IMG/VR virus record: IMGVR_UViG_3300044655_001360
DNA: 64,000 nucleotides
Reading direction: 5' to 3' (one strand)
From: a virus
In this document: positions 23,001 through 64,000 of the stretch, piece by piece
How the letters are laid out: every line of letters begins with the position of its first letter
How positions within the stretch are numbered: position 1 is the stretch's first letter
The notes under the pieces: model-generated
Told to the model about the DNA's origin: nothing
Databases searched by the model: none
What the model saw: the letters and a program-made list of their open reading frames with translations, nothing else
Program-made: the position numbers and the translations under genes

Positions 23001-26000
23001 CTGCTGTTACGACACCAGCAAACGATCAAAAATATCAGATAGTGAAAGATAATTTCACGATTGCACCAACACCATACGTTACAAACATTCATCCAGTCAC
23101 GAAAAATGAACCGGTGAGAACTGCTGGTTATGTAAAAACTGATCATGTTGATGTTACAGTTAAATCACGAAATGACATTTTAGCGTTAGATATCACCAAG
23201 ATATACGAAAATGACCACATATGGGTGACATTTAACGATTATTCATGGGATGTATTACGATATAATCAAACTAATCTTAGAATCACTGCACTTGCTGCTA
23301 GTGGAACAAGTTATATGTTGACGTTATCTGAAAGACATGGATTGAACGTTGATGATATTATTGGTATTAAACCAATCAATGTAATAACAGAATTAACTGG
23401 ATTCTTTAAAGTAACTGCAATTGAATGGAATGCTATCACAATTGATGGTAGCGCAATCACAGGAACACCAACCTTACCTGATATTAAACCATTGCATATT
23501 AGTGTATTGACGACTGCCAGATTCAGTAATTATGATAAGGTTGATCCAGAAATGGCTGCTACTTATGTAAAAGGTGCTAAACTATGGATTGATAACAATT
23601 CAACCGGTGATTGGGAAGTTGTTGAGAAACAAAATACTTATACTGATTATGGTTTAAAAGAAACAAATTATGGTATAACGGGAACTCCGTTAAATGCCGG
23701 AACTGCGGTTGCGTATTCAAGTGAATTGGGACAAACCATGGTCGGTGTTGCTGGTTCTGATTATGTGTTGGTATACGAAGGAACTTCTTTTACAAAAAGA
23801 AAAATCTTAATCAACCCACCAACTAGTTTGGGTGAACACTTAAATGGATCATTTGGTGCGACAATCACCTTATCACCAGATTCACGATTCATGGCTATTG
23901 GTGCACCAAAAGCAAGTTACGTGCATAGTAACTTCAATGACAGACCTTACCTACCAGCCAATGATTATTCGTATGGTGATATTGTACTGTATGATGACAT
24001 GATATGGGAAGCAACCTTAGATATTATTACAGATGGAAGTTCAAATTCAATTTATTCCGAAGATTGGAGACCAGCATCAATAGTACCAGCGACATCAGTT
24101 GGTAGAAATTCCGGTTATGTAAATCAAGGTGCAGTCGCAATCTATGAAAATACCGATATTGGTTGGAAGTTAATGCGTACATTCATTAGCCCAAGACCAG
24201 CCGATGACAAATTCTTTGGATCAGAAATAGCAATTGGTGTTGCAACTGATGGCACGTATACGATGGCCGTTACTTCAACGAATGGTACTGGCCAAGTTTA
24301 TATGTATGAATTCCTTGGAACTACATGGAAACATTACAGACATGCCACTACCGTAAATCAATACAATCCTTTCTTAACTAATGGACTTTCAGTTGCAATT
24401 AGTAAGGATTGTTCAACTGTATTAGTTGGAAAACCAAATACAGGCAATGGCGAAGTTATTCCATATGTACTTCATTCTAATCATCAATATGCTGCAATTG
24501 CAACTATTGGAAATACTACAGGTAATGTAGGAGACCTGTTTGGTTATAAAGTTGCATTGAGTGAAGATGGATCCACTGCCATTGTTTCTAGCCCTAATGC
24601 TGATGTTATGGTACCAGATCAAGGTTCCGTTTATGTAATTCCTAAATTAAACGGGGTTTATGACAGAACAAAAGAGCAACAATTACAGAGCTTTGATGCT
24701 TTATCTAATGAACTGTTTGGTACTTCATTATCTTTTAGTGCGACTGGTAACACTCTAGCTGTTGGTGCTAAAAATACATTATTCACACAATACTATACAT
24801 TTGATAGTGGTAAAACTGTATTCGATGAAGATAATACACAATTTGTAACATCAATTGGTAGTGCTGGTGGAGTTTATGTATTTGAAAAGAAAGGGTCTAA
24901 GTATTTCTTAACCTCCAAACCAACACCATCTGACATTGCTATGGTTCCATATGAATCATATGGTCATGCAGTTGCTTGTACTGACGATGTTGTCGTTGTC
25001 GGATCACCAACTTATGTGGCTCAAGGTGCCAGTGACCAGATTGGTATGGTTCGTTTATTTGCACAGGACAAATTCGTTAACTCGTGGAATACAATTGCAC
25101 ATCAATCTGCAGTGGTTGATATTACAAAAATCAAAAGTGTTGAGCTATACGATGACGTTAAGAATATCAAAATACAAGATTTGGATTATGTTGATCATGC
25201 AAAATTGAAAGTTCTTAACTACGCAGAGCAAGCAATTACCTATAAAACATTATATGACCCAGCGGTATATACAAATGGTACTGATGATACAACGCAAATT
25301 ATTGAACCATCACAATCTTGGGAAGATTCACATGTTGGTAAATTGTGGTGGGATGTATCTTCTGTAAAATGGGTATATGCTGAACAAGGCGATTTTGCAT
25401 ACAGAACAGGCCATTGGAATCAAATGGCAACTGGTTCTAGTGTAGATATCTATGAATGGGTTAAAACCAAGTTATTACCGTCGGAATGGGCTTCGTTGGC
25501 TGATACAAATGAAGGTATATCTGTAGGAGTTTCAGGGAATCCATTGTATCCTAATGATGATGTATTAACAGTTAAAACTTTATACAATACTGTTACTGGT
25601 GTTGCGACCGATACATTCTATTATTACTGGGTTAAAAATCCTGTAATAATACCAAGTGGATCAACTAGAACAGTGTCTGCATCGGATGTTTCAACGGCTA
25701 TTTCAAACCCAATTGGGACTGGTATTGCATTTGTTGCATTTACTGGTGAAAATGAATTATTAACATTCAACCTTGGTGCTAAAATGTCATCTGACACGGC
25801 ATTAATTAATACCATCTATTACAAAGATGATTCTGCGTTGATACCAGTTCATAATGAATATCAATTACTAACAGAAGGTGTAGCATCTAGTATACCATCA
25901 CCTCAATTGGAATTAAAATGGATTGATAGTTTAATTGGTGCTGATTCAGCAGGTAACAGAGTTCCTGATGATAGATTACCGGTAAAACAACGTTATGGAT

Positions 26001-29000
26001 TATCTTTTAGACCAAGACAAAGTATGTTTATTGATAGAACTAATGTTCTACAATCTGCAATTGAGCATATTAATGGCGTGTTAGTAAAAGCACCATTCAC
26101 AAGCAGTGTTAATTTTGAAATCTTGAATTCAATTGATCCGGTACCAACCGTTGAATCTAATAGATATGATACGGTAGTTGATTCATTTATCGACTTACAA
26201 TACGTTAATACTGGTAATGCACAACAAGCTGTTCTTGAACTTGGGTTGACCAATGGAAAAGTAACAGAAGTTACTATTGTAAACCAAGGTTATGGATACA
26301 AACCATCAATCCCAGTTTATGAAAACTTAGATTTACCATTATACAACTACAAAGGCACTGGTTATAAAGGACCATTGGTAACGGTTAACGGGAATGGTTC
26401 TGGTGCAGTTATTGAATTGATTATCGACAATTACGGTCGTGTAATCATGGCTAAAATCAAGTACAGTGGTAAAAAGTACAGCATTGCGTCTGCAAACGTT
26501 AGACCGTTATCTGTATTGGTTAGAGCAGATGAAACTGTTGATAATTTCTGGAGTATCTATGAATGGAATGCTAATATTAATCAATTTAGCCGTACTGCCA
26601 CCCAACAATACGATGCTACTAGATATTGGTCTTATATCGATTGGTGGAAATCTGGTTACGGATTATCATCAAGAATAGTCAAAGAAATCCAAAATATCGT
26701 TTCGATGAATGATTTAGAAACCGAGGTTGGTGACTTAATCAGAATCAAAGAATACGAAAATGGTGGATGGGCTGTATTTGAAAGAATCGCAGCTGAAGGA
26801 GAGCTTACTGCTGTAACTAATTATGATTTAGCAGTATTCTCTGACTACTACACAATAGTTGGTCGTGAAAATGGAACTATCCAATTGAGTGATATTCTAT
26901 ATAAAACTACATTTGGATATGATGGAGTTTCCCCGTTTGATGGTATTTCATACGATAGAGATTTTACACGAGAACTTCGTTTGATTTTACAAGCAGTAAA
27001 ACAAGATATCTTTACTAGTGAATACACGGTTGAATGGAATAACTTGTTCTTCTCAAGTATACGTGCAGCATTTGCTGAACAGATGTACATCGATTGGGCA
27101 TTTAAAACAAGTTTCATTACGGCTACCCATAATATTGGTCCGTTCAAACAATCATTGCATTATAATAGTGATAACTTGAGTAGTTTTGAAAGTTACATCA
27201 ACGAAGTTAAACCATATAGAACTACTGTTAGAGAATACATTAGTAAGTATGATTCAATTGAAATGGCAGTAACTGGTATGTCTGATTTTGATTTACAACC
27301 AGCGTATAATTACGAATATGGTAAAATCATGCCAATGAATAGTTTAACTACATTTAGTGGATATCCATGGAAATGGTGGTCTGATGATCATGCTTATTCA
27401 GTTACTGAAATCGTAGTCCACGATCAAGGTTCTGGTTATGAAATGGCACCCGCAGTTAAAATATCAGGTAGTGGAACTGGTGCAATCGCAAAGGCGTATA
27501 TCGCTAACGGAAAAGTAACCAAAATCAAAATAACTTCGGGTGGTTTTGGATACTTGGCTGCACCAAAAGTAGAATTATCTGGTGGCAATCCAATAAGCAA
27601 TGCAACAGCAGTGGCATTCATTGGTGATAGTAATGCTCGTATGTTTGATTTAACCATGAAATTTGATAGGATTTCAAAAACAGGATCAGTTGAAGGTTTC
27701 ACTTATACAGATTCATTCCCAATAGTAAGCGGTGATTCATCATCTTTTAGATTGACGTTCCCAGCAAATGAACAAAAATCTAAAATAAAAGTAACTAAGA
27801 ATGGTAATGTTATTTTAGGTGATTCGTTTAGTATAGTAACTACTGCAGTTAATGATCTTTTGGTGAGTGATTTGGTATTGAACGAAATACCAAAAGCTAA
27901 TGATTCAATCGTTATAACTTACGAGAAAACTGATGCTATTTTAGATGCGGTTGATAGAGTTGAAAAGTATTACGATCCAACTGCTGGAATGAAAGGTAAA
28001 CAATTATCGCAATTGATTACTGGTATCGATTTTGGTGGTGTTCAAATACAAGGTGCAACTTTCGATGTATCTGGTGGTTGGGATGCGATGCCATGGGCTA
28101 CTGATACATGGGATAGTATTGAATCTGATAATACTCACTGGCATTATTGTGAAGCTATTGACGAGAATCACCCAGAGATTCCAGATAATACCTTGCAAAT
28201 TACGTTACCGTATACACCAGCTACTGGTCAGCACATCAACGTTTATATCAAACCAGCTGATCCAAATAGAATTTTAAAATTGCAACCATATGGCTTGAAA
28301 GCATCACCATATTCTAAACCACCTGAAATCATAAGAATTGATGATATTGCCTATACTCCACAGTGGGATTCTGCTAGTACGGTAAACCCATATGCTGTTA
28401 TGCCAACTTTTGTTGGTGATGGATCTAATAAAGTGATTTCAATCGGTTCGCATATTAGTACATTTAAAGGTGATATTATCATACTTAGAATGGCTACTAG
28501 TGATGGCTCAATGGCGATTGATGATCCAAGTATCATCGATACAAATTTACAAGGTGGAACATTAGCATATATGAATGGTGCATATTCAACTGCAACTGGA
28601 TTAACAGCAGATGAAATTGCTATTGATGGTGGTGTGTTTATTAGTAAAGCTCATGTACCTGCAACTGAAGAAAATATTCCAGGACAAGTATTAGATAGTG
28701 TTAGCATTCGTGTATTTGATGAATCTGCAAATAGCGCAGCACCATTGCATAGCAGATATACAACTGGTGATGACGTAACATCTACTTTTGAGATTGGTAT
28801 GAAAGTAATTGACTCAACCGCTGTTATTGTAACAGTTGATGGTATTAAACGTAAGTTAGGAACTGACTACACCTTAGATGTTGTAAGCAGTACAATTACA
28901 TTCAAAACACCACCAGTTTCTGGTAAATTGATTTCGATTGATGCGATTGGTGTCGGTGGATTGGGTATTATAGCTAGTAATACATTTACTGCTAATGGTA

Positions 29001-30649
29001 AAACTACTAAATTTACAACAGCTGCGGCATTCAAGGATACAACTTCAGTATATGTGACAGTTGATGGTGTTGAGACAGCTGCAAGTTTTGGATCGACTGG
29101 TAACAAATCCAGTGGTAAAACCTATGTAGAATTGGCGAATAAACCAGTTAGTGGTTCAGTGATAAATGCTGTGTGTTTCAGTGGAACTAATGATCAATTT
29201 AATTCATCCATTATTCAACTAAAAAACCAAACGGTTGCATACTCAGGAAATCCAGTTATCACAGTTCAACTGTTCGATAAAACACCAACAACGACATCAC
29301 CAATTCCAGCAATTGTTGAATTAAATGGTGGGATATTAACTGGTAACGATTCGATATATGCGATATATGATGGGGTTGTTAATACGTTCTATATCGAGAA
29401 AAAGCAAAACTCAATCGTACCAGCTAACATCAAAGTTTATGTGAATAACCAACTAATTGCATTTATCAATGATTATGATTTTAGTGTGGATATGACTAGT
29501 TTAACTATCAACAAAGCATTGACGGTTGGTGATACCATTCTGATTACCAACGACTTTGAAGCACAATATTCTATAGTTGGTAATCAAATCACGTTTAATA
29601 CCGCTAAAGTGCAATTGACAACTGGTGATTCCATATCGGTTACTTGGTTTACTAACTACGAAAGTATGCAATTAGTTATTGACGAGACTGTTGGGGGTAA
29701 AGTGAAATATTACCTACCGTTTAAACCAATCGCATCTAGTTACCTCTGGGTATACAAAAATGGAATTAAGATGATTGCGGATAAAGACTATTCCGTAACC
29801 AATAATTACATGGTATTTGAGTCTATAACGAATGCCACTGATGCTATTAAGATTATCATATTCGGTGCAAATTTGAGACGTGAAGCCTGTGCATTTGAGA
29901 TAACCAAGGATATGTTTAATACAAGTGGTTATTATCGTTATTCAATGAATTCCGTGAAATTAGCCACTGACTTGAATTATTACGATACTTCGCTACAAGT
30001 TACTGATGCGAGTAATTTATACGTTCCACAACCTATGAGTAATGCTCCTGGTGTAGTTTGTATAAATGGTGAACGAATCCAGTATTTTAAAGTCACTGGT
30101 AATGTACTATCGCAATTGCGTCGTGGTGTGTTAGGTACATCAATCGCTGCGGTACATAAAGCAGATAGTTACGTTGTTGATGCTAGTTTATTAGAAAAAT
30201 TACCGTACTCAGATACTGAAGAACGTATCGATGTTATTTCTGGTAGTTTATCTAAGGAAATACCAGTTGATTTTTTACCAATTAAATCGAATAGAACTAA
30301 TTGGACTAGAGATGCAAAATCGACAATTCCTGCTAATTTTGGGCCTTGTGATCAAATTGAAGTCTTTGTGGCTGGTCGTAGATTACACAAAAACCCAATG
30401 ATGATGTTTGATGCTTCAACAAACTCTGATGTATTTGTAGATGCAGAATTTTCCGTTGATGGAACAACAAGAGTAGTTAGATTAACAACACCAGCACCAG
30501 TAGGTACTCGAGTCACTATCTTCCGTAAAGTTGGAAAAGTTTGGTACGATCAAGGTAGTTCAACTGCTAGTAATGGCGAGACTTTACTTGAAAATTCAAC
30601 ACCAGTAGCTAAGTTTATTGCCTTAAAAACGTCGATGGTTCCCGACTAA
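17099..30649 (+). CDS. Giant virion structural protein (gp7-like wedge with appended domains), 4516 aa
   Basis: Follows gp6; LLP..FQT..NKKF start; CBM-like aromatic repeats, 7 FG-GAP-like blades, G.GY repeats, YINEVKPY.T. Confidence 0.75.
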   Translation: MTDQLYPKSQLPIRKTEELLPGVFQTDANKKFMSAVVDPLVQPGLLEKTVGYVGRRYGKTFVGSDIYLDSDNSLRSRYQLEPGVVFNNNGTIDNFYDYIDFKNQLKFFGNTVERDDLITSQEHYSWNPPIVWDKFINYREYYWEPNGPLSVPVNGELNTFVVSEYDVSIDSNSFVFNPKSEIPLNNPTINLYRGQTYKFNVNAPKEGFIIRNKYDTGSLMYNYMYSYINGQLAVYDNQLLRAKHTIPSHSVPTLPDTVLDWEVVQFIYQAEISYYNPSTEYTVGEFVVFDDFLWQATVNIPVNTTTTVTTDKWRNFGVVVNTPTLDYTKGITNNGTSSGTITFVVPFDAPDELYYQSPIDPNKFGRFIIDDITTNTKTIEVDKTIIGMKNYTSGDGIVLTNGMVIQFYGSVSPAKYASDTWLVNGVGSAITLIRFSDLTTPTISKDVPTVMFDNSGFDTEPFDNAASYPGSQDYITISHASVDSNPWSRYNRWFHRSVLEYSCKLRGVEYSAPEEMRAKRPIIEFTANLQLFNHGTHAKQAVDAVDNITTDVFSTIEGARSYNIDGFELSSGVRILITADKDGLANNKIYKVTFVADQQTNAPVIHLVAVDDTNPIIGECVLVKSGKEFGGSMYHFDGTSWKLSQAKTSLNQAPLFDIFDENEVSLANTETYPASNFTGSKILSYKVGNGRTDSHLGFSLSYLNINNIGDIQFNWNFGTDTYIFVENNNKITRKVATGYYRTNFIGSEYANGWIATDNKYIQPVIDSFVVKEATNEINFTPINFYESIQDAWTVKFYLNGEPLTASYTRDQNLFTFSQTFTIGDVVSIKVISANDPDTGYYEIPVGLEKNPLNTELDTFTLGQADDHVKSAVDFHDRFTGTIPGISNLRDIDNYQQFATRFLKHSGITPLAISTLCDKDQNIIKALRYAKKMYIEFKNNFLDRAVMMPLLPAADTVDDIIASLTKTKTVDSPFAYSDMIGSGAYTKLTYTVDNTDVTTYALSNKFNLIDLSNNAVYVYINRLNLKGTYTKTQLLNTKDYQFNDVYGYVTISYALNVGDIIEIREYVSTAINYIPTTPSSIGLHKAYTPMIFTDDTYTTPRLVIQGHDGSITAAYGDFRDELLLELEMRIYNNIKQQYDPAIFDIDAILGGYYNTGMYTKQQLDSLIQSEFYKWITPSNIDHVHNNWYEELNAFTYTYNQSLDPTLTQKLPGYWRGIYNWFYDTDRPHRCPWEMLGFSEQPSWWESEYGSAPYTSENYILWEDLRDGTIRHGVRKGTYARYSRPDLLNHIPVDGNGKLIDPIASGLVNDFNTFTQQDNFAVGDIAPVEYSWRSSSDWPFVISIALCLLKPFEYITDRFDISRTKLNKLGQTVHKDTSLFVTLDDIVVPTNNEFSVGLGTYLVDEIKSKGIDAAIIEKKIKNLDVRLSTRMSGFVVTDQQHYLLDSKHQSAVGNVFVPPENVDIIFNVSSSVKTITYSGVIVEKTNGGWFISGYDRNNQFFNYYGVNPANNDPQITLTPVDNSLLMSVGGVSQPFTEWQPNVTYKNGEIVKYQTKFFKALRTNISETFDNTYHDWQMMKNLPTTGEVTALKRTSYNKFRLKVLNYGTKLGSIQEVIDFLFGYEEYLKSVGFVFDGYDTATQSPINWTTSAKELMFWTKSNWAEGSLITLSPIASKIDISMGGGVAESVIDGFYEYEILKANGQPFQLNEIDITRSFQKITVSPNASTDGIYYLNLYCVLKEHVAIFDDRTVFNDVIYDKPTGYRQGRIKSQGYRTVDWDGDYTSPGFLFDNVTISTWAPYTDYKMGDIVAYRSNNWTSSANQLGTANFDDTAWTKLDSTPTKQLIANYDYKVNQFEDFYDVTSEGIGENQRSLARHAIGYQTREYLQALAPDPVTQFQLYQGFIREKGTANAINKVFDKLSRSGDSSIVMNEEWAFRVGQFGGLDQLREVEFQVQKGMFKLNPQAIEIATAVTTPANDQKYQIVKDNFTIAPTPYVTNIHPVTKNEPVRTAGYVKTDHVDVTVKSRNDILALDITKIYENDHIWVTFNDYSWDVLRYNQTNLRITALAASGTSYMLTLSERHGLNVDDIIGIKPINVITELTGFFKVTAIEWNAITIDGSAITGTPTLPDIKPLHISVLTTARFSNYDKVDPEMAATYVKGAKLWIDNNSTGDWEVVEKQNTYTDYGLKETNYGITGTPLNAGTAVAYSSELGQTMVGVAGSDYVLVYEGTSFTKRKILINPPTSLGEHLNGSFGATITLSPDSRFMAIGAPKASYVHSNFNDRPYLPANDYSYGDIVLYDDMIWEATLDIITDGSSNSIYSEDWRPASIVPATSVGRNSGYVNQGAVAIYENTDIGWKLMRTFISPRPADDKFFGSEIAIGVATDGTYTMAVTSTNGTGQVYMYEFLGTTWKHYRHATTVNQYNPFLTNGLSVAISKDCSTVLVGKPNTGNGEVIPYVLHSNHQYAAIATIGNTTGNVGDLFGYKVALSEDGSTAIVSSPNADVMVPDQGSVYVIPKLNGVYDRTKEQQLQSFDALSNELFGTSLSFSATGNTLAVGAKNTLFTQYYTFDSGKTVFDEDNTQFVTSIGSAGGVYVFEKKGSKYFLTSKPTPSDIAMVPYESYGHAVACTDDVVVVGSPTYVAQGASDQIGMVRLFAQDKFVNSWNTIAHQSAVVDITKIKSVELYDDVKNIKIQDLDYVDHAKLKVLNYAEQAITYKTLYDPAVYTNGTDDTTQIIEPSQSWEDSHVGKLWWDVSSVKWVYAEQGDFAYRTGHWNQMATGSSVDIYEWVKTKLLPSEWASLADTNEGISVGVSGNPLYPNDDVLTVKTLYNTVTGVATDTFYYYWVKNPVIIPSGSTRTVSASDVSTAISNPIGTGIAFVAFTGENELLTFNLGAKMSSDTALINTIYYKDDSALIPVHNEYQLLTEGVASSIPSPQLELKWIDSLIGADSAGNRVPDDRLPVKQRYGLSFRPRQSMFIDRTNVLQSAIEHINGVLVKAPFTSSVNFEILNSIDPVPTVESNRYDTVVDSFIDLQYVNTGNAQQAVLELGLTNGKVTEVTIVNQGYGYKPSIPVYENLDLPLYNYKGTGYKGPLVTVNGNGSGAVIELIIDNYGRVIMAKIKYSGKKYSIASANVRPLSVLVRADETVDNFWSIYEWNANINQFSRTATQQYDATRYWSYIDWWKSGYGLSSRIVKEIQNIVSMNDLETEVGDLIRIKEYENGGWAVFERIAAEGELTAVTNYDLAVFSDYYTIVGRENGTIQLSDILYKTTFGYDGVSPFDGISYDRDFTRELRLILQAVKQDIFTSEYTVEWNNLFFSSIRAAFAEQMYIDWAFKTSFITATHNIGPFKQSLHYNSDNLSSFESYINEVKPYRTTVREYISKYDSIEMAVTGMSDFDLQPAYNYEYGKIMPMNSLTTFSGYPWKWWSDDHAYSVTEIVVHDQGSGYEMAPAVKISGSGTGAIAKAYIANGKVTKIKITSGGFGYLAAPKVELSGGNPISNATAVAFIGDSNARMFDLTMKFDRISKTGSVEGFTYTDSFPIVSGDSSSFRLTFPANEQKSKIKVTKNGNVILGDSFSIVTTAVNDLLVSDLVLNEIPKANDSIVITYEKTDAILDAVDRVEKYYDPTAGMKGKQLSQLITGIDFGGVQIQGATFDVSGGWDAMPWATDTWDSIESDNTHWHYCEAIDENHPEIPDNTLQITLPYTPATGQHINVYIKPADPNRILKLQPYGLKASPYSKPPEIIRIDDIAYTPQWDSASTVNPYAVMPTFVGDGSNKVISIGSHISTFKGDIIILRMATSDGSMAIDDPSIIDTNLQGGTLAYMNGAYSTATGLTADEIAIDGGVFISKAHVPATEENIPGQVLDSVSIRVFDESANSAAPLHSRYTTGDDVTSTFEIGMKVIDSTAVIVTVDGIKRKLGTDYTLDVVSSTITFKTPPVSGKLISIDAIGVGGLGIIASNTFTANGKTTKFTTAAAFKDTTSVYVTVDGVETAASFGSTGNKSSGKTYVELANKPVSGSVINAVCFSGTNDQFNSSIIQLKNQTVAYSGNPVITVQLFDKTPTTTSPIPAIVELNGGILTGNDSIYAIYDGVVNTFYIEKKQNSIVPANIKVYVNNQLIAFINDYDFSVDMTSLTINKALTVGDTILITNDFEAQYSIVGNQITFNTAKVQLTTGDSISVTWFTNYESMQLVIDETVGGKVKYYLPFKPIASSYLWVYKNGIKMIADKDYSVTNNYMVFESITNATDAIKIIIFGANLRREACAFEITKDMFNTSGYYRYSMNSVKLATDLNYYDTSLQVTDASNLYVPQPMSNAPGVVCINGERIQYFKVTGNVLSQLRRGVLGTSIAAVHKADSYVVDASLLEKLPYSDTEERIDVISGSLSKEIPVDFLPIKSNRTNWTRDAKSTIPANFGPCDQIEVFVAGRRLHKNPMMMFDASTNSDVFVDAEFSVDGTTRVVRLTTPAPVGTRVTIFRKVGKVWYDQGSSTASNGETLLENSTPVAKFIALKTSMVPD

Positions 30650-46080: not shown

Positions 46081-46316
46081 TAGAAACCACCACCATCAAA
46101 CTTAACTTCAACTGATGTAGAAGATTCTTTGATTTCAGCCAACATGCTATGAATTTCAGTAACTGTTTTACCTAGATTCATAGTCATACCAGCCAATTCA
46201 GTGGCTAACTCACGAGCTTCTTGTATAGAAAGTCGAATATCTTTCTGTTGAGATTTCTCAGCAGCTGCAACTCGTTGAAACAATCTTTCAATTGTCGGCA
46301 AAGTCATGTTGCTCAT
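46080..46316 (-). CDS. Hypothetical coiled-coil protein
   Basis: GGAG SD; ends in DGGGF. Confidence 0.7.
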   Translation of the reverse strand: MSNMTLPTIERLFQRVAAAEKSQQKDIRLSIQEARELATELAGMTMNLGKTVTEIHSMLAEIKESSTSVEVKFDGGGF

Positions 46317-47307
46317 GTTTTACTCCGTTTGTGGTATATGAAGCACCTAATGGAGATGCATACTTAATGGATTGGTCTGAAATCTTCTTTAAATCATACA
46401 ATCCGCAAAACTTAATTAACCTAGAACCCACTTGATTAATAGACTTTGGTTCAACTGACCGAATAGTTTCATCAATAATAGCACGTACATCAGCTGGCTG
46501 TTTAGTCAAATCAATCAGGGTACAATTACGATTATAATCATCTAAAACACGATGGTCAGTACCGTTGTGATCTGTCCATTTCTGCAACATTAGATTATTC
46601 CAACTGAAACCTTTATGTTTTTTGTCTTCAAATGCTTCAAGTAAACCAACTTTGTTTTTAGTTCCTTTGGTACGAACCCCAGGATAAGCAGAAAACACAT
46701 TATCTGACGTATCACCACGTATACATTTTTCAAATAGCAACCATTGTGGATCTGGTGGTGGTTTTGGTAAGTTTGTTTTCTTATCAATAACTAACTTACC
46801 TTTTACATCAAAGAAACCACTTTCACATACGGTAGTTTCACTAACACCGTTATACTGACGTACATTCGGTGCAATTAACTGATAAAAATCACTATCTGTA
46901 CTAATAATAACATGATTATCATTGGGATGGTTTTGAATCCAACCAGCAATCAAGTCATCTGCTTCTAAACGAGGATGTTGTAATACTGTACAGTTAGTCT
47001 TTTCAGTTAAGAAGTTTGCTAACTTTTCATACGCTTCCCAGAAAACCTTTTCTTCAATGGCTTCTTTTTCAGTGTGTGCTGCTCTGGTATCAGAACGATT
47101 ACGTTTATAAGGTGGATAGAAGTCTTTACGCCAACTACGACCTTCTAAGAAGACAACCACATGACTGCCATCGAAGTCTTCCCATGCTTTCTTGATAGAA
47201 TGCAACGTAATATGAAATGCCATACCTAATTTAAGGTCAACATCCCCATTAATAGAGAATCTTGCTCTATAAAACGTATTTGATAAATCAACTAGGATGT
47301 GGCTCAT
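46288..47307 (-). CDS. 5'-3' exonuclease / flap endonuclease (T4 RNase H-like)
   Basis: LVD..N.FYRA, SWRKD.YP.YK.NR, EADDLIA, STDSDF.QL, GDTSDN. Confidence 0.92.
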   Translation of the reverse strand: MSHILVDLSNTFYRARFSINGDVDLKLGMAFHITLHSIKKAWEDFDGSHVVVFLEGRSWRKDFYPPYKRNRSDTRAAHTEKEAIEEKVFWEAYEKLANFLTEKTNCTVLQHPRLEADDLIAGWIQNHPNDNHVIISTDSDFYQLIAPNVRQYNGVSETTVCESGFFDVKGKLVIDKKTNLPKPPPDPQWLLFEKCIRGDTSDNVFSAYPGVRTKGTKNKVGLLEAFEDKKHKGFSWNNLMLQKWTDHNGTDHRVLDDYNRNCTLIDLTKQPADVRAIIDETIRSVEPKSINQVGSRLIKFCGLYDLKKISDQSIKYASPLGASYTTNGVKHEQHDFADN

Positions 47308-50276: not shown

Positions 50277-51017
50277 TTACTTACTAGATAATGCAGGTAA
50301 GATGTACTTATATACCGCAATACCACTATCAACAATAATTTGCATCGCACCAACATCAGAAATGTTCATAGTTTTAGTACCAGCTAATCCAAGAATCTGA
50401 ATGATTTGATGCACTGGCCAAGACCAAGTATATTTTAAGGATTCAGTAGCAGTAACTGTATGGAATATAAAACTACCAGCATGAGTAGATGCATCACCAA
50501 AACTAACGATTAAGTTATTGTTCTTTGTACTTATTTCCAGAACTGGTTCTTGTGAATGAGCCGTACTTTGATACTTCAAACGCGTAATACTTGCAATAGT
50601 CGGTTCAAATGAAATCTTCCATTGTGCGCCATTGAATATAGCATTCTTGATCTTTTCGTTAATAACCGCAGTACTCATAAAACGGTAGTCATTTGAAAAG
50701 TCACCTGCTGCATTTTCAAAATGTAGGGAAGTAGGTACTTCAACTCCGTCACGTACTTCACGTACAACTTCAATTTTGCCATCTTCACGGTATTCAGGAC
50801 ATTTTAAATGAATGTTTAGTTTATCTAAGTTGGGTAAACCAAATACACCTTCGAATTCTGCAACTGGCTTATGTACTTCAGCCTGCAAAATAACCGATTT
50901 ATCTTCGGCAATAGATTCAATAGAAGTTGAAGTTGGTGTTCCAGTTACTTTTACTGTTGGTAAAATGCCTAATGAATGAGTGTGTGCTACGATGTCTTGT
51001 AGAGTATCTTTAATCAT
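50277..51017 (-). CDS. gp45: DNA polymerase sliding clamp (gp45-like)
   Basis: Downstream of polymerase, ~246 aa, G.FG...L..L and G...I...SG...Y.YILPA pattern; own promoter TTGACA-17-TAAACT at 51084-51112. Confidence 0.6.
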   Translation of the reverse strand: MIKDTLQDIVAHTHSLGILPTVKVTGTPTSTSIESIAEDKSVILQAEVHKPVAEFEGVFGLPNLDKLNIHLKCPEYREDGKIEVVREVRDGVEVPTSLHFENAAGDFSNDYRFMSTAVINEKIKNAIFNGAQWKISFEPTIASITRLKYQSTAHSQEPVLEISTKNNNLIVSFGDASTHAGSFIFHTVTATESLKYTWSWPVHQIIQILGLAGTKTMNISDVGAMQIIVDSGIAVYKYILPALSSK

Positions 51018-51181
51018 AATATAATCTCGAGGTTTGAAGTTAAAATAATCCACATATAAGTGGAATCTGGTACTGCTTTGTGTAGTTTAATAGTTTGTCA
51101 CTGGATTGTCAAGTTAAATATGTACCTAGTGGATACTAGGTACAATATACCAATGCGAGGCGCGTTAGTGCCGAGCCTTAG

Positions 51182-52180
51182 TTAAAAAGAAAACAACGAA
51201 TTGAAGAAGTTATCCTGACGAGTTTCACTCAAATCCCAGTTGAGTACACCAATCAAGTTGTCCAACTTGTCATCAATCAACTTCTCTTCCATGATAGCTT
51301 CATCAAATGGAAGTTCCTTAAACCATTGAGGTAAACGTTGTTCATCAACTGGATACGCTACGCTCTTGAATCCCATCGGGTTATCTTTAAGTGTACAAAC
51401 CACCACTTTGGAACCATCGATAATAGACATAGTATACTTGTCACTATTCATGCGTTTTAAGGTATTCCAATTGATACTAGCTCTGACTTGACCTGGCATC
51501 GTTGCTTTGCCTTTATCGGTTAATAACGTACCATACTTGGTAATGTTATTAGCTCGTTTTGGTGAACCCTTTTCCCAACCATTCCATTTCTTGAATTCTT
51601 GTCTGAATTCGGTAATGTAATTGATTGTATCCTCTTGTGGTTTGCCATTGAGAACCATATCTAATACATTACTTAAGAAGTCTTGAATTGCCGGTGGCGT
51701 GTCAGATCGTCTTAAGTCCAAACCCATTGCTTTTACTTTACCAGCTTTGCCATTCACATCCATACGTTTACCTTCCTTGTCGAAGTAAAGAACCGCGTAT
51801 CGTTTTTTGGTGATGAACAGCGCTTTAGAACCAATGATCTCGCGGCCTGCTTTGATTACTGAACCACGTGCTTTTGGGCAATGAAATGCAGTAGACATGA
51901 ATTTTGGGAAAGTCTCGTTAACTTCCTCACCAATCGCATCATAAAACTGAATGATTGATTCTTTATCCCATGGGATTTGACCAGAATCAATCAATGGTTT
52001 CAATGTTGGGTATGCAGAGAAATACACCGAGTTATGAATTAAAATGTCGTTACCAAAAAACCATGGATGATCTTCGTTTTTCATACCAATGTCATATACA
52101 TATTCATCCTCTGCTTTTCTTAGAAGTTTAACTGACTTCACTTTTCCACGGTGTAAACTTATTGTGTTAGTTTGTTGCAT
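51182..52180 (-). CDS. gp43: DNA polymerase B C-terminal fragment led by a 50-aa C-intein (IntC 52031-52180)
   Basis: IntC: YVYDI.M......FFGNDILIHN|SVYF; extein: TKKRYA, KAMGLD.RRSD; ATG at 52180 after AAGGAA. Confidence 0.92.
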   Translation of the reverse strand: MQQTNTISLHRGKVKSVKLLRKAEDEYVYDIGMKNEDHPWFFGNDILIHNSVYFSAYPTLKPLIDSGQIPWDKESIIQFYDAIGEEVNETFPKFMSTAFHCPKARGSVIKAGREIIGSKALFITKKRYAVLYFDKEGKRMDVNGKAGKVKAMGLDLRRSDTPPAIQDFLSNVLDMVLNGKPQEDTINYITEFRQEFKKWNGWEKGSPKRANNITKYGTLLTDKGKATMPGQVRASINWNTLKRMNSDKYTMSIIDGSKVVVCTLKDNPMGFKSVAYPVDEQRLPQWFKELPFDEAIMEEKLIDDKLDNLIGVLNWDLSETRQDNFFNSLFSF

Positions 52181-53171
52181 AATACCATTCCTTAATTTCA
52201 TTGATGACAGTCTCTTTGTCTTTATACCATGCTTTTTCCCAGATTACAAATACTTCATATCCTTGATTATTGGCATATGTACGTTTTGCTTGATCGCGGG
52301 ACCAAATGAAATAAGCATGTTGTCCTTTTTGTTTAAAGTAAAAATCTCTATCATATAAGTCTGGATCAGCATGCCAGTATGATCCATAAAACTCAATCAA
52401 CTTCTTACGCGATGGATCACCGTAATCATATGGTCCAATATGTGGATTATCTAGTCTAAAGGATAATTGTAAATCTGGCATTACTGCAACTAAATCCTCA
52501 TATGCAGATAATTCGATTTTTGATTGTATTCGTTCAACCGATGCACGACCAATACAAAACGCATCATACTTTTCAGTTCCATCTTCAAGACCATAAGTTT
52601 CCACAAAATATTCCAATGACGTGGTATATCGTTGTTGCTCGCAGTATATATTCCAATTAACCATACCAGCAACTACACCATGGCGGTCTATCATGTTTTG
52701 TATCGTTTGAGATCTTGAATTATTATACGCATTGAATTCATCAATAGTCATACCATATTTTGCTTCCTTGTACTCGAAGGTGTTAGTTTCTGCCTGTACA
52801 TCACAGTAACTTTTCCATCTGATCTTTCCTTCTTCTTCGCCGTATTTTTCAATCATCGCGGCTTCTGTAACACCGCACAATTCTTTTAAGTTTTCTGACA
52901 CGATTGGCGATGTTGGATACCTATGTATATATTCCGCTATTGTAATACTTTCAACACATTTACTTTTCAAATGGGTTGGTGTGATACGTTTATATGATTT
53001 CCCACACATTGCACATTTCACTTGGCTATTTGGGTCCGCAGAATCGACGGATCTTCTACTAACACCATACTTGTTAGTCTTTATGGTTATCCCATTAACA
53101 GGGGGGTTAACGCCCAACGAGTTCAATAACTCACCATACAACTGTTTTGTTTCATCGTCAACATTGTTCAT
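52167..53171 (-). mobile_element. Free-standing homing endonuclease (Zn-finger, YG repeats, Vsr-like domain) between the split-intein halves
   Basis: C..CGK.....H; three (K/R/T)(Y/H)G...G...(W/Y)..(Y/F)C repeats; YDY....KLIEFYGSYWH...GY.V.VIWE. Confidence 0.85.
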
Positions 53172-53183
53172 GCTATATCCTTA

Positions 53184-55370
53184 TTAGTTTATAAAATCTG
53201 AGTGTTTCACCGATATCAATATATCAGTCTCTAAAATGTCAATCGGTTTAGTTTCAATTAAATTACCATCTCTCTCAACCATAACTGAATGGTCTTCAGT
53301 TACAATTATGGTGTTTCCAAGTTCATCTTCAATTTCGTACAAATCCTTTGATACTTTATGTCGGTATATGTAGTTAATATTACCATAATACGGTGCATCA
53401 TCTTTTAGACTATACGATAAAACTTGTAGATCTGGGTTACATGCATACTCCTTATCACCATTATTCCAAAACTCAGTACACCCGTTAAACAACTCTTCGA
53501 TTGTCTTAACTCCTTGATTTGTATGGTGTTTCGTTTCGGAAAATTCGGAATCCGTGTCGTTATAAATGATTGATTTTCCTAGATAATTATATTCACCACA
53601 TACAATCTCGTTAACTTGTGCTGTCATATGACGGGTAATCGACCGTCCAGTTAATGTTGTACTTTGACCAATGCGTTTATCGAAAAACCTACAACCACTG
53701 TTCAAAATCGCCCCATAGCAGGAGTTCAAAAGTAATTTGGTATACTGTTCTTTAATACTCCAGTATCTTTCCTCGATGTCAAGTCCAGCATCCCGAGCAA
53801 CTTTCATTTTTTTCTGCATTACTTGACGATCAGCATACCATTGTTTTAACAAACCGGGAATGATTCCCTCTTTTTCAAAAGTAAAGATAGTACCATTTGC
53901 ACTTAACATCCATGATTGACCAGATTTGAAAATTAAATCATAGGTTTGAGCAGCACTAAGTTCATCACTACTACCCTCTTCCCAATCTATAGTAAGCATA
54001 CGATTCGAATCTCTTGACATAACATCATCATATTCTAAAGTCGAAAATACGCCTTCCCAACATGAAGCAAACTTCTTACCTGTAGCCATTTGATCCGCAA
54101 TAAACTTATCAGTTGCCACTGGTCTAAGTTGACCGATAATAGTCTCTGGACTCATATTAAGTGCACGGATTGTACTAGGGTACAGCGAGTTGATATCTAA
54201 TGAAGCAACCCAATCATGTAGACCTTTTTTGGGATAAGCAACATACGCACCAGCAGCTTGCGTGTTTTCATTATCATTACGTGGCTTTCTATTAGGTGCA
54301 ATCTGCCCTTTACTATGCGCCTCATTGATAATAGCTTGTTCAATAGCTGCAACGGAACCTAACGTAGTTGGTAACAATACAGTACAACCATGAGCAGTCG
54401 TATTAGCCAAATCCATAAACTTCAACTTCTTATCCATTCTATCTAACAGTGCAACGTCTTGTCGGTTATATTCGATAAAAGTCTTAAAGTCTTGATTGTA
54501 TAGCTGTTCTAACGTACCATCATAAACAGTTTTATGGTCACCTAATTCATATTCAGCAATCGCATCTAATCGATAAGATGGCTTTTCTTCATGAGTATAC
54601 TTACGATAAATGTCCAAGTAATCCATATGAACTCGACCAACCAAATCGAAAGTAGTCGAAACCTTACCAAACTTCTCGAATTCACGTTTCTTAGGAGATT
54701 GATCCCATAAACAGAATCGACGAGTATCGTTCTTACTTAAAACCTTAGCAACACGATTAACGGTATATGGAATATCGAATGATTCAGAATTCCAACCACT
54801 TAATACATCAGCATCTTCGATAATAGTAAGGAACGTATCTAATAATTCCTTTTCTGTTTTAAAGATAAACGTATTCTCAAACTCAGCTACTTGCTCTTCA
54901 GCTTCTTTGATACTCATATGTTTTGGTGGAATTGCCAAACAAATCATAGTTTCAGACCACTGTAGATATACAGCAATAGAAACAATTGGCATAAAAGGAT
55001 CATCTGGTGCGGCATAGCCGCGTTCAGGACACATACTGGTCTCGATATCGAAATACGCGACATTGAGTTTAGGTGCATCTGCGTTAAGGTAATGGTCTTC
55101 AAGACAACGATAGGTAACATTGATATCACTTTCATATAACTTCTTGGTTTGACCAAATATAGCAATATTCTTATGATGTTCTTTGTGGGTTTTACTTTTA
55201 ACCCTAGACAATGGTTTACCTTTCATTGAATGATGGTTACCATTTGGGTCTTCGTAATAAAAGACATAGTTTGCTGGAAATTCTCGGTAATGGCGAATGC
55301 CATCTGTATCACGTTCAACTACGTGGATAATATCGCGATCTTTTTCATAAAAAGCATCTACATAACTCAT
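53184..55370 (-). CDS. gp43: DNA polymerase B N-terminal fragment ending in a 121-aa N-intein (IntN 53187-53549)
   Basis: Exo FDIET, GWNS..FDIPY, YN.QD; motif A SLDINSLYPS; motif B K..LNSCYG; YNDTD|S then intein with block B IVTEDHSVMV. Confidence 0.93.
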   Translation of the reverse strand: MSYVDAFYEKDRDIIHVVERDTDGIRHYREFPANYVFYYEDPNGNHHSMKGKPLSRVKSKTHKEHHKNIAIFGQTKKLYESDINVTYRCLEDHYLNADAPKLNVAYFDIETSMCPERGYAAPDDPFMPIVSIAVYLQWSETMICLAIPPKHMSIKEAEEQVAEFENTFIFKTEKELLDTFLTIIEDADVLSGWNSESFDIPYTVNRVAKVLSKNDTRRFCLWDQSPKKREFEKFGKVSTTFDLVGRVHMDYLDIYRKYTHEEKPSYRLDAIAEYELGDHKTVYDGTLEQLYNQDFKTFIEYNRQDVALLDRMDKKLKFMDLANTTAHGCTVLLPTTLGSVAAIEQAIINEAHSKGQIAPNRKPRNDNENTQAAGAYVAYPKKGLHDWVASLDINSLYPSTIRALNMSPETIIGQLRPVATDKFIADQMATGKKFASCWEGVFSTLEYDDVMSRDSNRMLTIDWEEGSSDELSAAQTYDLIFKSGQSWMLSANGTIFTFEKEGIIPGLLKQWYADRQVMQKKMKVARDAGLDIEERYWSIKEQYTKLLLNSCYGAILNSGCRFFDKRIGQSTTLTGRSITRHMTAQVNEIVCGEYNYLGKSIIYNDTDSEFSETKHHTNQGVKTIEELFNGCTEFWNNGDKEYACNPDLQVLSYSLKDDAPYYGNINYIYRHKVSKDLYEIEDELGNTIIVTEDHSVMVERDGNLIETKPIDILETDILISVKHSDFIN

Positions 55371-55375
55371 TTAAA

Positions 55376-55435
55376 CTCCTGATTGTTTATGGCCAATCTT
55401 ACCGTATAATCCGACACTTATGGCGGTCGTAAACC
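55376..55435 (-). promoter_or_regulatory. Tandem GCCAUAA-loop hairpins abutting the polymerase SD
   Basis: CGAC-cGCCATAAgt-GTCG and GATTG-GCCATAAa-CAATC immediately followed by AGGAG. Confidence 0.6.
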
Positions 55436-55449
55436 TTATTGATTATAAC

Positions 55450-55692
55450 TTATTTGCCGTGTTTTAAGCAATACATAGTCACCAGTGGATTTTCTTCCAT
55501 TACGATTAAGTCAAACTGATACTTGCGATAATGCCTATTACGCTCTCTGTCTATTTCTGTTATCATGATTAGTTTTGGGCATACCTTAGTTACTACGCCA
55601 ACTCGTAAGTCGTTATGATGTGCAAATGCTACGAAGTTACCTGCTACTACTGGTCTACCTAGTTTGTCACTTTGTTCGATTATTTTAGCCAT
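55450..55692 (-). CDS. Hypothetical protein (SH3/KOW-like)
   Basis: DKLG..V..G.FVAF.....L..G.V.K...K pattern; AGGA SD. Confidence 0.6.
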   Translation of the reverse strand: MAKIIEQSDKLGRPVVAGNFVAFAHHNDLRVGVVTKVCPKLIMITEIDRERNRHYRKYQFDLIVMEENPLVTMYCLKHGK

Positions 55693-55713
55693 TTTGAATC
55701 CTAATATCAGTTA

Positions 55714-55792
55714 AGCTCGCACCTAGCGGTGCTCGCAAGGTACGAGCAATGCACAAGTGAGGTACGAGTGAGGTACGAGCAAGGTACTAGCG
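55714..55792. repeat. 23-nt hairpin element followed by AGGTAC(G/T)AG x4
   Basis: AGCTCGCACCTAGCGGTGCTCGC; related copies at 51155, 61305 and 61378. Confidence 0.75.
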
Positions 55793-55860
55793 TAAACTAA
55801 TATTTAGACTCAAAATTAACTATTACAAAAAGAGCAGCCTGTAGGCTGCTCTATAATAGA

Positions 55861-56118
55861 TTAATCTAACCGTTTAGTGATATCAAGGATAGCTTCAACT
55901 TCTTCCCAGTCTTCATTAAAGGTAGACCAATTGCCTTTGTGAGCAATCTTGATGGCTTTGTTGATAATAGAAGGTTTGATTTGAAGTTCTTCAGCTACTG
56001 CTTTTACAGTATCTTTAAGACCCATAGAAAGGTCTTCAACTTCACGTAGTACGTTAGAACCTTCATTGATTAAACGTTCTAATTTTGCTTTTTCTTCTGG
56101 ACCGTAGATTTTTGACAT
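55861..56118 (-). CDS. Small dsDNA-binding protein (T4 DsbA/GapR-like)
   Basis: LK..VK..AEEL..KP..INK..KI.HK pattern; promoter TTGACA-17-TACAAT at 56148-56176; terminator 55826-55851. Confidence 0.65.
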   Translation of the reverse strand: MSKIYGPEEKAKLERLINEGSNVLREVEDLSMGLKDTVKAVAEELQIKPSIINKAIKIAHKGNWSTFNEDWEEVEAILDITKRLD

Positions 56119-61438: not shown

Positions 61439-62098
61439 TTAAGTTACGACATGTTCATAGATTCTACCGATAATGGCTTGGTTTCGCATCCTTAGCATCA
61501 AAAGAGTTTGCTCATCTTCTACTAGGATATATCTTGCATCACCAGACCATCTTGTATACATAATCCAATCTTGGATTGCTTCAGAGAATGTAATACGAGG
61601 TACTTGTGTATTCATCCACTTGATATATTCCTGCTTTTCAGCTGGATCAAGTATCTTATGTGGTTTCAAGAAAACCTTGAACCTATACTTACCATATGGT
61701 AATTTCTTAACAGAAATAACATTGGGTGTATCCAATATAGGATTTGTTAAGTCAGGTTCCCATCTTTCTAAGATTGGAAACTTAGCACTAATCGCATTAT
61801 ACATATTCACGTCATTTGTAAAGATAGAAATATCAAATTCCGTTCTAGCAGTCCAATCCGTTTTTGGATACATATCTACAAAATCAATCAATTCAATGAT
61901 TGCATCTTTATGGAGGTTCAACAAACGTTGTTGATGTTTGGAAAAACTCCAACAATAAGAACCGTTTTCGCAGAATTCTTTCATACGATTGCGGAACTTA
62001 TTGAAGTTTAACAACGCAGCACTGTATTGACTAACATCTATTGTGACTTTGTAAAGCCACTTGTCATAATACTTCTTAGTTGTCGTCTGCGTGATCAT
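61439..62098 (-). CDS. Hypothetical protein
   Basis: ORF overlapping clpA stop; terminator at 61403-61433. Confidence 0.7.
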   Translation of the reverse strand: MITQTTTKKYYDKWLYKVTIDVSQYSAALLNFNKFRNRMKEFCENGSYCWSFSKHQQRLLNLHKDAIIELIDFVDMYPKTDWTARTEFDISIFTNDVNMYNAISAKFPILERWEPDLTNPILDTPNVISVKKLPYGKYRFKVFLKPHKILDPAEKQEYIKWMNTQVPRITFSEAIQDWIMYTRWSGDARYILVEDEQTLLMLRMRNQAIIGRIYEHVVT

Positions 62099-64000
62099 CA
62101 GCTAATACCAATTGCCCATCTTCAACGATCAGTTTTTGATCTGATTCCACTACTGGTTTAACATACTCAGAAACTGTGAAAACGGGTTCGTCATTTTCGA
62201 TAGTAACTTTAACATGACCACCGTTAACCAAATCACCGAATAAAACACGACGACTTAATGGACTTTTCAGTTTAGTATCGATTACTCTTGAAAGAGGTCT
62301 AGCACCCATTTTCTTATCGTATCCAAGTTTAGCTAACCATTCAGCTGTAGTTTCATCGATTTCAATTAAGATATCTTTGTCTTTTAACTGGGCGTTTAAT
62401 TCACCAATGAATTTATCCACGATTTTAAGAACTGTACTATGTTCTAATGGAGCAAACTTGATGATAGCATCTAAACGATTGCGGAATTCAGGTGCAAAGT
62501 ATTCATTAATTGCTTTATCATCTTCACCAGTTCTAGCTAAATCACCAAACCCAATAGTATTACGTTCACTGTCACGAGCACCCAAGTTACTCGTCATAAT
62601 AAGAATACAGTTACGACCATCTGCTTGTTTGCCGTTAGAACCAGTTACAAAGCCATTATCCATGAATTGTAACATGATATTTGTTACATCAGGATGTGCT
62701 TTTTCGATTTCATCGAGTAGAAGAACACAGTGTGGATTTTCTTGCAGTTTAGTAATTAACTGACCTGCGTTGTCTTCAAATCCAACATAACCAGGAGGTG
62801 AACCAATCAATCTTGCCACTGAGTGTTTCTCTTGATATTCACTCATGTCAAAACGAACTAATGGCATGTGCATGTACTTAGCAAGTTGCATAGAAAAATT
62901 TGTTTTACCAACGCCGCTGGGTCCTGGGGCAAGAAAACATCCAATTGGTTTGTTAGGAGCTTTCATACCAGCTTGTGATAAGAAGATTTTATCAACCATT
63001 TTCTCAATAGCTTCGTCTTGTCCAAAGATAACCGATTTCAAATGAGGTTCTAATTCTTGCAAATCCGAACTTTCACGTTGATTCATTGATTCAAGTGGCA
63101 TACCTAGCATTTTAGACAATTCAAATGAAATCTGTTCGATGTCAACTATTTCAGTTACACCTTCAGTTGTCGGATCATCGTTCAATTTGAATCGAGCAGA
63201 AGCACAATCCAAGATATCAATTGCTTTATCTGGAAGTTGCTTGTCATTGATATACTTAACGGACAATTTAACTGCTTGTTCGATAGCTGCTGTAGTAATT
63301 TTCACATTATGATGTGCTTCATAATACTTACGAATACCTTTTAAGATTTTAACTGCCATTTCTGGTGATGGCTCATCCGCAGTAACTCGTTGGAAACGAC
63401 GCATTAATGCACGGTCATTTTCAAAGTGTTTGCGATAATCTTCCCATGTAGTAGAAGCAACAATTTTGATAGTACCTTTAGTTAATAAAGGTTTCAACAT
63501 ATTAGATAAATCATTAGCACTATTACTTGATGCACCAGCACCTTGCATCATATGAGCTTCATCAATGAATAATATAATTTTACCTTTTTTCACTAATGCT
63601 GCCAACACGCCTTTGATGCGTTCTTCAAAATCACCACGATACTTGGTACCAGCTAGTAACGAACTGATATCCAATGAATAAACTTCGTGGTCTTGAATGA
63701 ACTTAGGTACATCTTTCTCGTGAATTTTACGGGCTAGGCCAGCTATAATGGAAGTTTTTCCAACTCCTGGTGAACCGATTAAAAGTGCATTACACTTATG
63801 TCTACGAGCAAGAATCAATTGGATTTCTTCTAACTCGGTTTCACGACCGATAACTGGATCTATTTTGTTATCACGAGCAAGAGCACTCAAGTTAGTGCAA
63901 TACGCATCCAATAACTTATCTGGGTTTTTCGCACTACCAACTGCTTGATCACCCAAGTCACCATCTTCACGATTGGCATTGAAGTGTTTAGCAAACTTTT
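62076..64000 (-). CDS. clpA: ClpA-like AAA+ chaperone (5'-truncated by the window)
   Basis: IDPVIGRE.E, G.PGVGKT, AGTKYRGDFEER, FIDEAH, LPDKAID, GPSGVGKT, DMSEYQE.HSVARLIG.PPGYVG, IGF loop, GARPL; frame open to window end. Confidence 0.95.
   Translation of the reverse strand, partial: KFAKHFNANREDGDLGDQAVGSAKNPDKLLDAYCTNLSALARDNKIDPVIGRETELEEIQLILARRHKCNALLIGSPGVGKTSIIAGLARKIHEKDVPKFIQDHEVYSLDISSLLAGTKYRGDFEERIKGVLAALVKKGKIILFIDEAHMMQGAGASSNSANDLSNMLKPLLTKGTIKIVASTTWEDYRKHFENDRALMRRFQRVTADEPSPEMAVKILKGIRKYYEAHHNVKITTAAIEQAVKLSVKYINDKQLPDKAIDILDCASARFKLNDDPTTEGVTEIVDIEQISFELSKMLGMPLESMNQRESSDLQELEPHLKSVIFGQDEAIEKMVDKIFLSQAGMKAPNKPIGCFLAPGPSGVGKTNFSMQLAKYMHMPLVRFDMSEYQEKHSVARLIGSPPGYVGFEDNAGQLITKLQENPHCVLLLDEIEKAHPDVTNIMLQFMDNGFVTGSNGKQADGRNCILIMTSNLGARDSERNTIGFGDLARTGEDDKAINEYFAPEFRNRLDAIIKFAPLEHSTVLKIVDKFIGELNAQLKDKDILIEIDETTAEWLAKLGYDKKMGARPLSRVIDTKLKSPLSRRVLFGDLVNGGHVKVTIENDEPVFTVSEYVKPVVESDQKLIVEDGQLVLADDHADDN

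Follow-up and report, generated by a model that had tools for sequence, protein, structure and literature searches.

A candidate split Ser/Ser intein and a Vsr-like nuclease ORF interrupt motif C of the DNA polymerase gene in a giant uncultivated phage

Results

We analyzed one DNA strand of 64,000 nucleotides (nt), hereafter the window, from the IMG/VR virus record IMGVR_UViG_3300044655_001360, which stems from an uncultivated phage. The minus strand of the window carries a gene for the DNA polymerase PolB in two pieces, with the halves of a putative intein, IntN and IntC, at the broken ends and a free-standing endonuclease open reading frame (ORF) between them (Table 1). This arrangement had been picked out in an earlier note on the same DNA, and its parts were found where the note had placed them. 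The upstream polymerase piece (PolB-N) reads up to YNDTD and then runs into an IntN of 121 amino acids (aa) that begins with SEFSET and contains exactly two Cys residues, and the separate endonuclease ORF has both Vsr-like residues and a Vsr-like fold. PolB-N was recognized by the Pfam families DNA_pol_B_exo1 (2.1e-21) and DNA_pol_B (3.5e-26), and within IntN we could assign Ser1, block A (SEFSETKHH), an NX motif (YRHK) and block B (VTEDH).

Table 1 Features of the polymerase locus in the window.
Feature	Position	Strand	Details
PolB-N ORF	53184..55370	minus	728 aa = 607-aa extein + 121-aa IntN
PolB N-extein	53550..55370	minus	607 aa; exonuclease domain, palm motifs A and B, YNDTD of motif C
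IntN	53187..53549	minus	121 aa, SEFSET to DFIN; stop codon 53184-53186
Free-standing endonuclease ORF	52167..53171	minus	334 aa; phrog_22677
Putative CCHC zinc finger, Ros/MucR-like	52956..53015	minus	C53, C56, H67, C72
Three helical repeats (YGxEEGxxxWxxYC-like)	52527..52874	minus	repeats seen in sequence
Vsr-like catalytic domain	52170..52478	minus	D249, E260, W266-H267, D293, E312
PolB-C ORF	51182..52201	minus	50-aa IntC + 282-aa extein from second ATG
IntC	52031..52180	minus	50 aa; basic N-terminal strand HRGKVKSVKLLRK, block F VYDIG, block G ILIHN
PolB C-extein	51185..52030	minus	282 aa from Ser+1 (SVYFSAY); KKRY motif, thumb; stop 51182-51184; Pfam DNA_pol_B
Terminator-like hairpin after PolB-C	51121..51144	minus	consensus scan only

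The three ORFs follow one another on the same strand in the order IntN, endonuclease, IntC, each with its own ribosome-binding site. The endonuclease ORF starts 12 nt past the IntN stop codon and has an AAGGA ribosome-binding site, and its 3′ end shares 14 nt with the IntC ORF as counted from position 52180. This position is the second ATG of the downstream polymerase ORF (PolB-C); it has an AAGGA Shine-Dalgarno sequence 8 nt upstream, and a 93%-identical relative (P0189) has the same start. With the second ATG, the 50-aa, Cys-free IntC ending in IHN/SVYF (the slash marks the junction) that the earlier note described holds; with the first ATG it would be 57 aa long. In most relatives (P0190-P0243; L003:8085-8500, as in phage PA5oct) the IntC ORF has an extra N-terminal extension of 30-40 aa, giving 77-88 aa before the junction, and the short form of 44-50 aa occurs in the window, P0189 and a few others. 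No terminator-like site was found between the three ORFs in a consensus scan, which fits one transcript. A scan for sigma-70 promoters at the locus performed no better than on shuffled sequences.

Based on its codons, the insert forms a cassette of 1519 base pairs (53549..52031), and its removal leaves a polymerase of 889 aa (607 + 282). At the cassette, base composition does not change in the stepwise way that foreign DNA would cause. When the locus was compared by megablast with 50,697 phage records, zero matches were returned, relatives being found at the protein level only. Scanning viral contigs with the C-terminal PolB piece yielded three very close relatives (L004, L005 and L006), whose flanks are 89-97% identical to the window DNA. 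The polymerase of L005 is uninterrupted and 889 aa long, and the joined window exteins aligned to it without gaps at 93.0% identity (827/889; N-extein 563/607, C-extein 264/282), while the N-extein was 98% identical to that of L004 (596/607). The junction reads YNDTD-SVYF in the window versus YGDTD-SSYF in L005, and joining the halves would, as the earlier note proposed, rebuild YNDTDSVYF. At the DNA level, homology between the window and L005 stops at ~53537 and resumes at 52025, which is 5-13 nt from the codon-defined ends (53549/52031), an offset caused by microhomology at the junction. The empty site of L005 reads TACGGTGACACTGAT/TCTTCGTAC... Because the cassette ends where homology to a sister allele lacking the intein breaks off, the pattern is not due to chance. 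Beyond L005, we found 75 uninterrupted relatives with 56-69% identity, and all intein-less alleles (76/76) read YGDTDS.YF.

The same alignments bear on whether the broken gene is still in use. The locus might be a decaying PolB pseudogene, broken by a selfish insertion in a phage that replicates with a polymerase encoded elsewhere. Our view is limited to the 64,000 nt of the window, and a second polymerase gene may lie outside it; this point tells against a functional gene in pieces. A pseudogene is nevertheless very improbable, as both exteins are full length, have neither gaps nor stops and match the sister alleles at 93-98% identity. No damage was seen in motifs A, B, C and KKRY, and the same layout is retained in hundreds of phage contigs.

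Two of the sister contigs, L004 (1058-5954) and L006 (613-5275), carry another split-intein cassette at the same codon. It comprises a 116-aa IntN that is 44% identical to the window IntN and a Hef-like endonuclease of 574-583 aa (583 in L004) of the PA5oct type (phrog_559/3339), and the DNA homology of its IntC to the window is confined to the last 80 nt. Because L004 holds a different IntN and endonuclease at the same codon, comparison of these alleles indicates that this PolB codon has been invaded repeatedly, with ongoing turnover within the window's own phage group. The Gly of motif C, replaced by Asn in the window (53559-53561), is present in 76/76 intein-less alleles; both occupied sister alleles have Asn, whereas the empty L005 has Gly. 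Without correction for kinship, the intein-bearing alleles have Gly in 37/66 cases, followed by Asn (11), Cys (8), Ser (7) and Gln (3). The loss of Gly in occupied alleles could reflect co-conversion, splicing context or target immunity. In a check for co-conversion, the first 60 nt of the C-extein were 62% identical to L005 versus 89% overall, but 30-nt bins with similarly low identity also occur elsewhere, so that this dip is at most a hint of co-conversion.

The sister contigs also contain extra DNA beside the polymerase that has no counterpart in the window: upstream lies an ORF of 180 aa, downstream one of 113 aa, and L005 has ~2 kb more (window ~55824-55827, 55460-55463 and 51114-51179 versus L004:128-626, L004:5960-6372 and L005:1156-3123). 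This DNA gave zero Pfam matches where tested, and the gene borders are indel hot spots.

Residue conservation in the intein was taken from alignments of 35 N-pieces and 36 C-pieces. S608 (Ser1), R670-H671 (NX motif), and T691 and H694 (block B) are invariant in the IntN relatives and present in the window, and E26, V28, Y29, D30, H49, N50 and Ser+1 (S51) are invariant in the IntC relatives, with HN/S at the IntC junction in 62/62 relatives. The insert has the features of a class 1 HINT intein of the cysteine-independent Ser1/Ser+1 type: a Ser1 directly after the extein, TxxH, the Arg-His of the NX motif, the block F Asp, HN/S, and a host protein that is restored by in-frame removal. A His preceded by Arg or Lys in the NX motif is a signature of Ser1 inteins (PMC10189870). 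The likeness to the PolB1 intein of Aeromonas phage Aes123, which the earlier note had pointed out, was borne out by alignment of IntN with the crystallized intein (PDB 9hth, E=2.6e-11), for which trans-splicing in vitro has been reported (PMC11923092). IntN could also be aligned with the split inteins of Aes508, PA5oct and KP13-7, and the Pfam family Intein_splicing (PF14890) is precomputed for most relatives. The sequence data support a class-1 Ser/Ser intein in two halves, with a layout that looks functional and would be expected to splice at the protein level.

IntN has a net charge of -14 and the first half of IntC one of +4, which fits the capture-and-collapse assembly described for split inteins. 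We modelled IntN with 10 extein residues together with IntC with 12 extein residues. The complex model scored 0.82 versus 0.00 for the best control, with at least 83% contact agreement among runs and a predicted local distance difference test (pLDDT) value of at least 69 for the partner; the mark used is passed by 58/80 solved complexes and 2/110 mismatched pairs. The contacts with the lowest error are those between the acidic YEIED strand of IntN and the KSVK strand of IntC. The model suggests that IntN and IntC associate as one HINT fold, but since similar complexes have already been solved the pass may reflect memory, and we take it as a likeness and not as proof.

The halves might instead be dead as inteins and serve as a non-covalent clasp of two polymerase chains, like the intein-less split gp43 or NrdA of some T4-like phages. 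Such non-covalent split polymerases and split NrdA do exist in T4-like phages (PMC3045599). Block A of the window is unlike that of characterized inteins, and even before splicing the N-piece reads DTDS, the motif being completed by Ser1 of the intein itself. However, all catalytic residues are kept and are invariant across the family, the odd block A is conserved in 41/66 relatives including contiguous mini-inteins, and a clasp alone would need no Ser1, Asn50 or Ser+1. Hence, we regard a non-splicing clasp as unlikely.

Joining of the halves at the RNA level, by a group I intron with an endonuclease ORF or by ribosomal bypass, was also considered, and the earlier note had itself named an intron as one finding that would overturn its reading. 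The polymerase gene of Aes508 does contain a group I intron, at another place, and Vsr-like endonucleases also occur in group I introns. In contrast, a permissive Rfam scan of 50800-55800 (E up to 1) detected no intron and lent the idea no support, the sole match being a sub-threshold small nucleolar RNA (E=0.4). RNA folds at both ORF junctions were no better than shuffles (z -1.3 and -0.03), and the insert codes for in-frame intein blocks that are conserved as protein. We give an RNA-level route hardly any credence, and protein splicing remains the preferred reading.

The window nuclease has at least 209 homologues. Its family, phrog_22677, also takes in the ORF that separates the two polymerase pieces in Aes508, where it is annotated as VSR-like, and its counterpart in KP13-7. 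In an alignment of 41 homologues, D249, E260 and G263 never vary, while W266, H267, D293 and E312 vary rarely or not at all. A single-sequence search of the PDB with the nuclease returned nothing meaningful, and Vsr was reached by profile and fold only. The nuclease profile matched E. coli Vsr (1cw0) with E=0.004, D249, E260, W266-H267 and D293 aligning to Vsr D51, F62, W68-H69 and D97 with a catalytic spacing of 11/7/26 versus 11/7/28 in Vsr. The best Foldseek matches were 1cw0 (E=4.9e-3, prob 1.00) and 3r3p, the catalytic domain of I-Bth0305I (template modelling score 0.72 to target); the AlphaFold model of the nuclease has a pLDDT of 88. The window nuclease shares the catalytic-domain fold and the Asp/Glu/Trp-His/Asp constellation with I-Bth0305I and Vsr (3R3P, 1CW0). 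I-Bth0305I, unlike the window nuclease, is intron-encoded, and the N-terminal two thirds of the window nuclease have no solved counterpart. In this N-terminal part, C53, C56 and C72 of the putative CCHC finger are almost invariant; PF05443 is precomputed in some relatives, and the match to 2jsp is weak (E=0.37). The repeat residues G111, G115, W119, Y122, G165, G169, W173, Y176 and G194 are kept and G198 is invariant, and the repeat region is all-helical in the AlphaFold2 model (pLDDT ~90). The candidate finger and the three repeats presumably serve in the recognition of a long DNA site. As judged from its sequence and models, the middle ORF is a Vsr-like homing endonuclease with predicted cleavage activity.

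Block A reads S-E-F-S-E-T-K-H-H in the window versus S-V-x-G-D/S-T-I-I/L in Aes, PA5oct, CP21 and LCGC14. The pattern Ser1-Glu2...Thr6-x-His8 (hereafter E/H) characterizes the 41 of 66 metagenomic relatives mentioned above, and the contiguous E/H mini-inteins among them, such as P0009 and P0031, must splice because there would otherwise be no polymerase. A decayed intein as the source of the odd block A was rejected, the pattern being kept in these relatives, contiguous inteins included. An aliphatic residue at position 8 is accompanied by a hydrophobic one at position 2 (His once). Paired switches at positions 2 and 8 have occurred within the E/H clade in at least two sublineages: a C/L switch in P0011, P0017 and P0030, which together are sister to the window, and a switch to F, V, L or H with I or V in P0016, P0046, P0045 and P0029. 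No block A of the usual type was seen by eye in the other two reading frames, and the string DTDSE is absent from the supplementary sequences of the published work on new cysteine-less PolB inteins. The window intein is a member of a large E/H subclade that apparently lacks characterized representatives. It is conceivable, though doubtful, that the Glu2-His8 pair beside Ser1 helps to activate Ser1 and represents a distinct route to oxyester chemistry, in which case the subclade could be a source of split inteins that are orthogonal to the tools of the Aes/CL, LCGC14 and PolB16 types.

The layout itself is not new. Fractured genes that combine a split intein with a free-standing endonuclease of the Vsr-like or GIY-YIG kind were described by Dassa et al. 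in 2009 (PMC2677866), and the earlier note was right that fractured phage genes of this sort were already known. The loci of Dassa et al. have the same layout, an endonuclease ORF overlapping the IntC ORF and Vsr-like motifs with Glu at Vsr Phe62; their eight host enzymes do not include PolB, whereas the host gene in the window is PolB (PMC2677866). A hairpin before the endonuclease ORF, a feature of the Dassa loci, was not supported by RNA folding here. Annotations of the Aeromonas phages Aes508, Aes123 and AS-gz show the same split-intein layout. It has also been reported in print for two jumbo phages, MIJ3 and PA5oct, to whose intein the mini-intein of SCTP-2 is related (PMC6892783). At least 418 copies of the nuclease were confirmed in IMG/VR. 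Among the best 80 of these copies, all 80 have IntN upstream and/or IntC downstream, 78 lie in PolB and 70 have all five parts. The earlier note had further presented the intein as a special new member; Ser at both junctions, the Cys-free IntC and YNDTD, with a residue other than Gly at -4, are all present, but its distinctiveness was overstated, as these traits are ordinary in a very large family.

The Aes123 PolB1 group (Aes123, Aes508, AS-gz; 9HTH; PMC11923092), with which CP21 PolB1, LCGC14 PolB2 and GOM-OPS-1 PolB2 are grouped (PMC12707363), shares with the window the gene, the insertion point (Y.DTD/S ... HN/S), Ser1/Ser+1, the Arg/Lys-His of the NX motif, an IntN of ~120 aa, an IntC of ~40-50 aa and a phrog_22677 nuclease between the halves. 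It differs in sequence (~33% identity over a 132-residue aligned stretch) and in block A (SV.GD(T/S)II versus SE..T.H in the window). The window host is a giant uncultivated phage. The Aes gene has a further split upstream and also contains a group I intron. In Aes508 (L002:952-6274) the polymerase is annotated as three pieces, with a GIY-YIG Seg-like gene at the first split, a group I intron, and the split intein with its VSR-like ORF, giving three kinds of selfish element in one polymerase gene. The closest cultured relatives are the jumbo Pseudomonas phages MIJ3 and PA5oct along with SCTP-2, a Salicola phage that has a mini-intein (PMC6892783), at 49% identity by tblastn (residues 3-721) and 47% over the intein stretch. 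They have the same insertion codon and block order, and their IntC blocks F and G are nearly identical to those of the window. In contrast, MIJ3 and PA5oct have a 560-aa endonuclease annotated as Hef-like/HNH (phrog_559/3339) instead of the 334-aa Vsr-like one, and a block A of the SV type. In Klebsiella phage KP13-7 (L001:3698-5650) and in P0252-P0257, a related cassette sits two residues earlier (YGD/S ... HN/TDSVYF), which makes Thr the +1 nucleophile and places the catalytic TD of motif C in the C-piece.

Contiguous mini-inteins of 160-205 aa were present at the same site in 20/68 relatives, with a variable linker exactly where the window intein is cut. In a tree of the IntN part, which is rough given its few columns, split and contiguous forms are interspersed and well-supported branches force at least six changes. 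This fits the gene-breaking model of Dassa et al., in which an endonuclease repeatedly invades, and is lost from, a resident mini-intein.

Elsewhere in the window, minus-strand genes (46288-47307, 55861-56118, 2368-4137 and 62076-63956) make up a T4-type replication and repair module. The neighbourhood encodes a 5′-3′ exonuclease/RNase H-like protein, a transcription factor resembling DsbA and an SMC_N ATPase of the Rad50/gp46 type. A double AAA+ ATPase resembling ClpB, an uncommon protein for a phage, is encoded there as well. A 4516-aa ORF (17099-30649, plus strand) and nearby large plus-strand ORFs of 840, 1143 and 1479 aa gave zero Pfam matches where tested; these giant ORFs probably encode virion or injected proteins.

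Discussion

Taken together, the data very probably reflect a mobile 1519-bp cassette that sits codon-exactly in motif C of the gene for PolB, the replicative family-B DNA polymerase of a giant T4-related phage, with intein halves that splice and a nuclease that homes. In the mechanism we propose, the three ORFs would be expressed, probably, from one transcript. The acidic tail of IntN and the basic N-terminal strand of IntC would capture each other and collapse into one HINT domain. Ser1 would then undergo an N-O acyl shift, aided by the Thr and His of block B and the Arg-His of the NX motif, after which Ser+1 would attack the ester, Asn50 of IntC would cyclize and an O-N shift would yield the 889-aa polymerase with YNDTD-SVYF at its junction. 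The nuclease would have no role in splicing; most likely it cuts intein-less alleles of the L005 type during co-infection, and the cassette is then copied into them by repair. The splicing itself, the specificity of cleavage and the single transcript are what we infer here, and homing receives indirect support from the empty allele and the two differently occupied alleles in sister phages.

Several observations weigh against this reading. The IntN half alone scores 33.5 bits with PF14890, compared with a gathering score of 35.8, and Pfam detects only this half and not IntC. Glu2, Lys7 and His8 in block A replace the usual hydrophobic residues, and no members of the E/H subclade were found among characterized inteins. 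Natural relatives can be poor splicers, wild-type Aes splicing reaching ~30% (PMC11923092). The match of the nuclease to Vsr is weak by E-value (0.004 for the profile and 0.005 for the fold).

The locus adds one more case to a known and abundant kind and brings no fresh principle. The PolB intein family has already been mined for cysteine-less ligation tools (PMC11923092, PMC12707363, PMC10189870). What the window offers in practice is a Ser/Ser intein that is split by nature and has no Cys in IntC and only two in IntN, from a subclade that the groups developing cysteine-less tools have apparently not sampled. For the biology of these phages, its value lies in three alleles of one essential gene in near-identical giant phages, one empty, one with the present cassette and one with another cassette, a set in which homing, the replacement of one cassette by another and the evolution of the target site can be tested directly.

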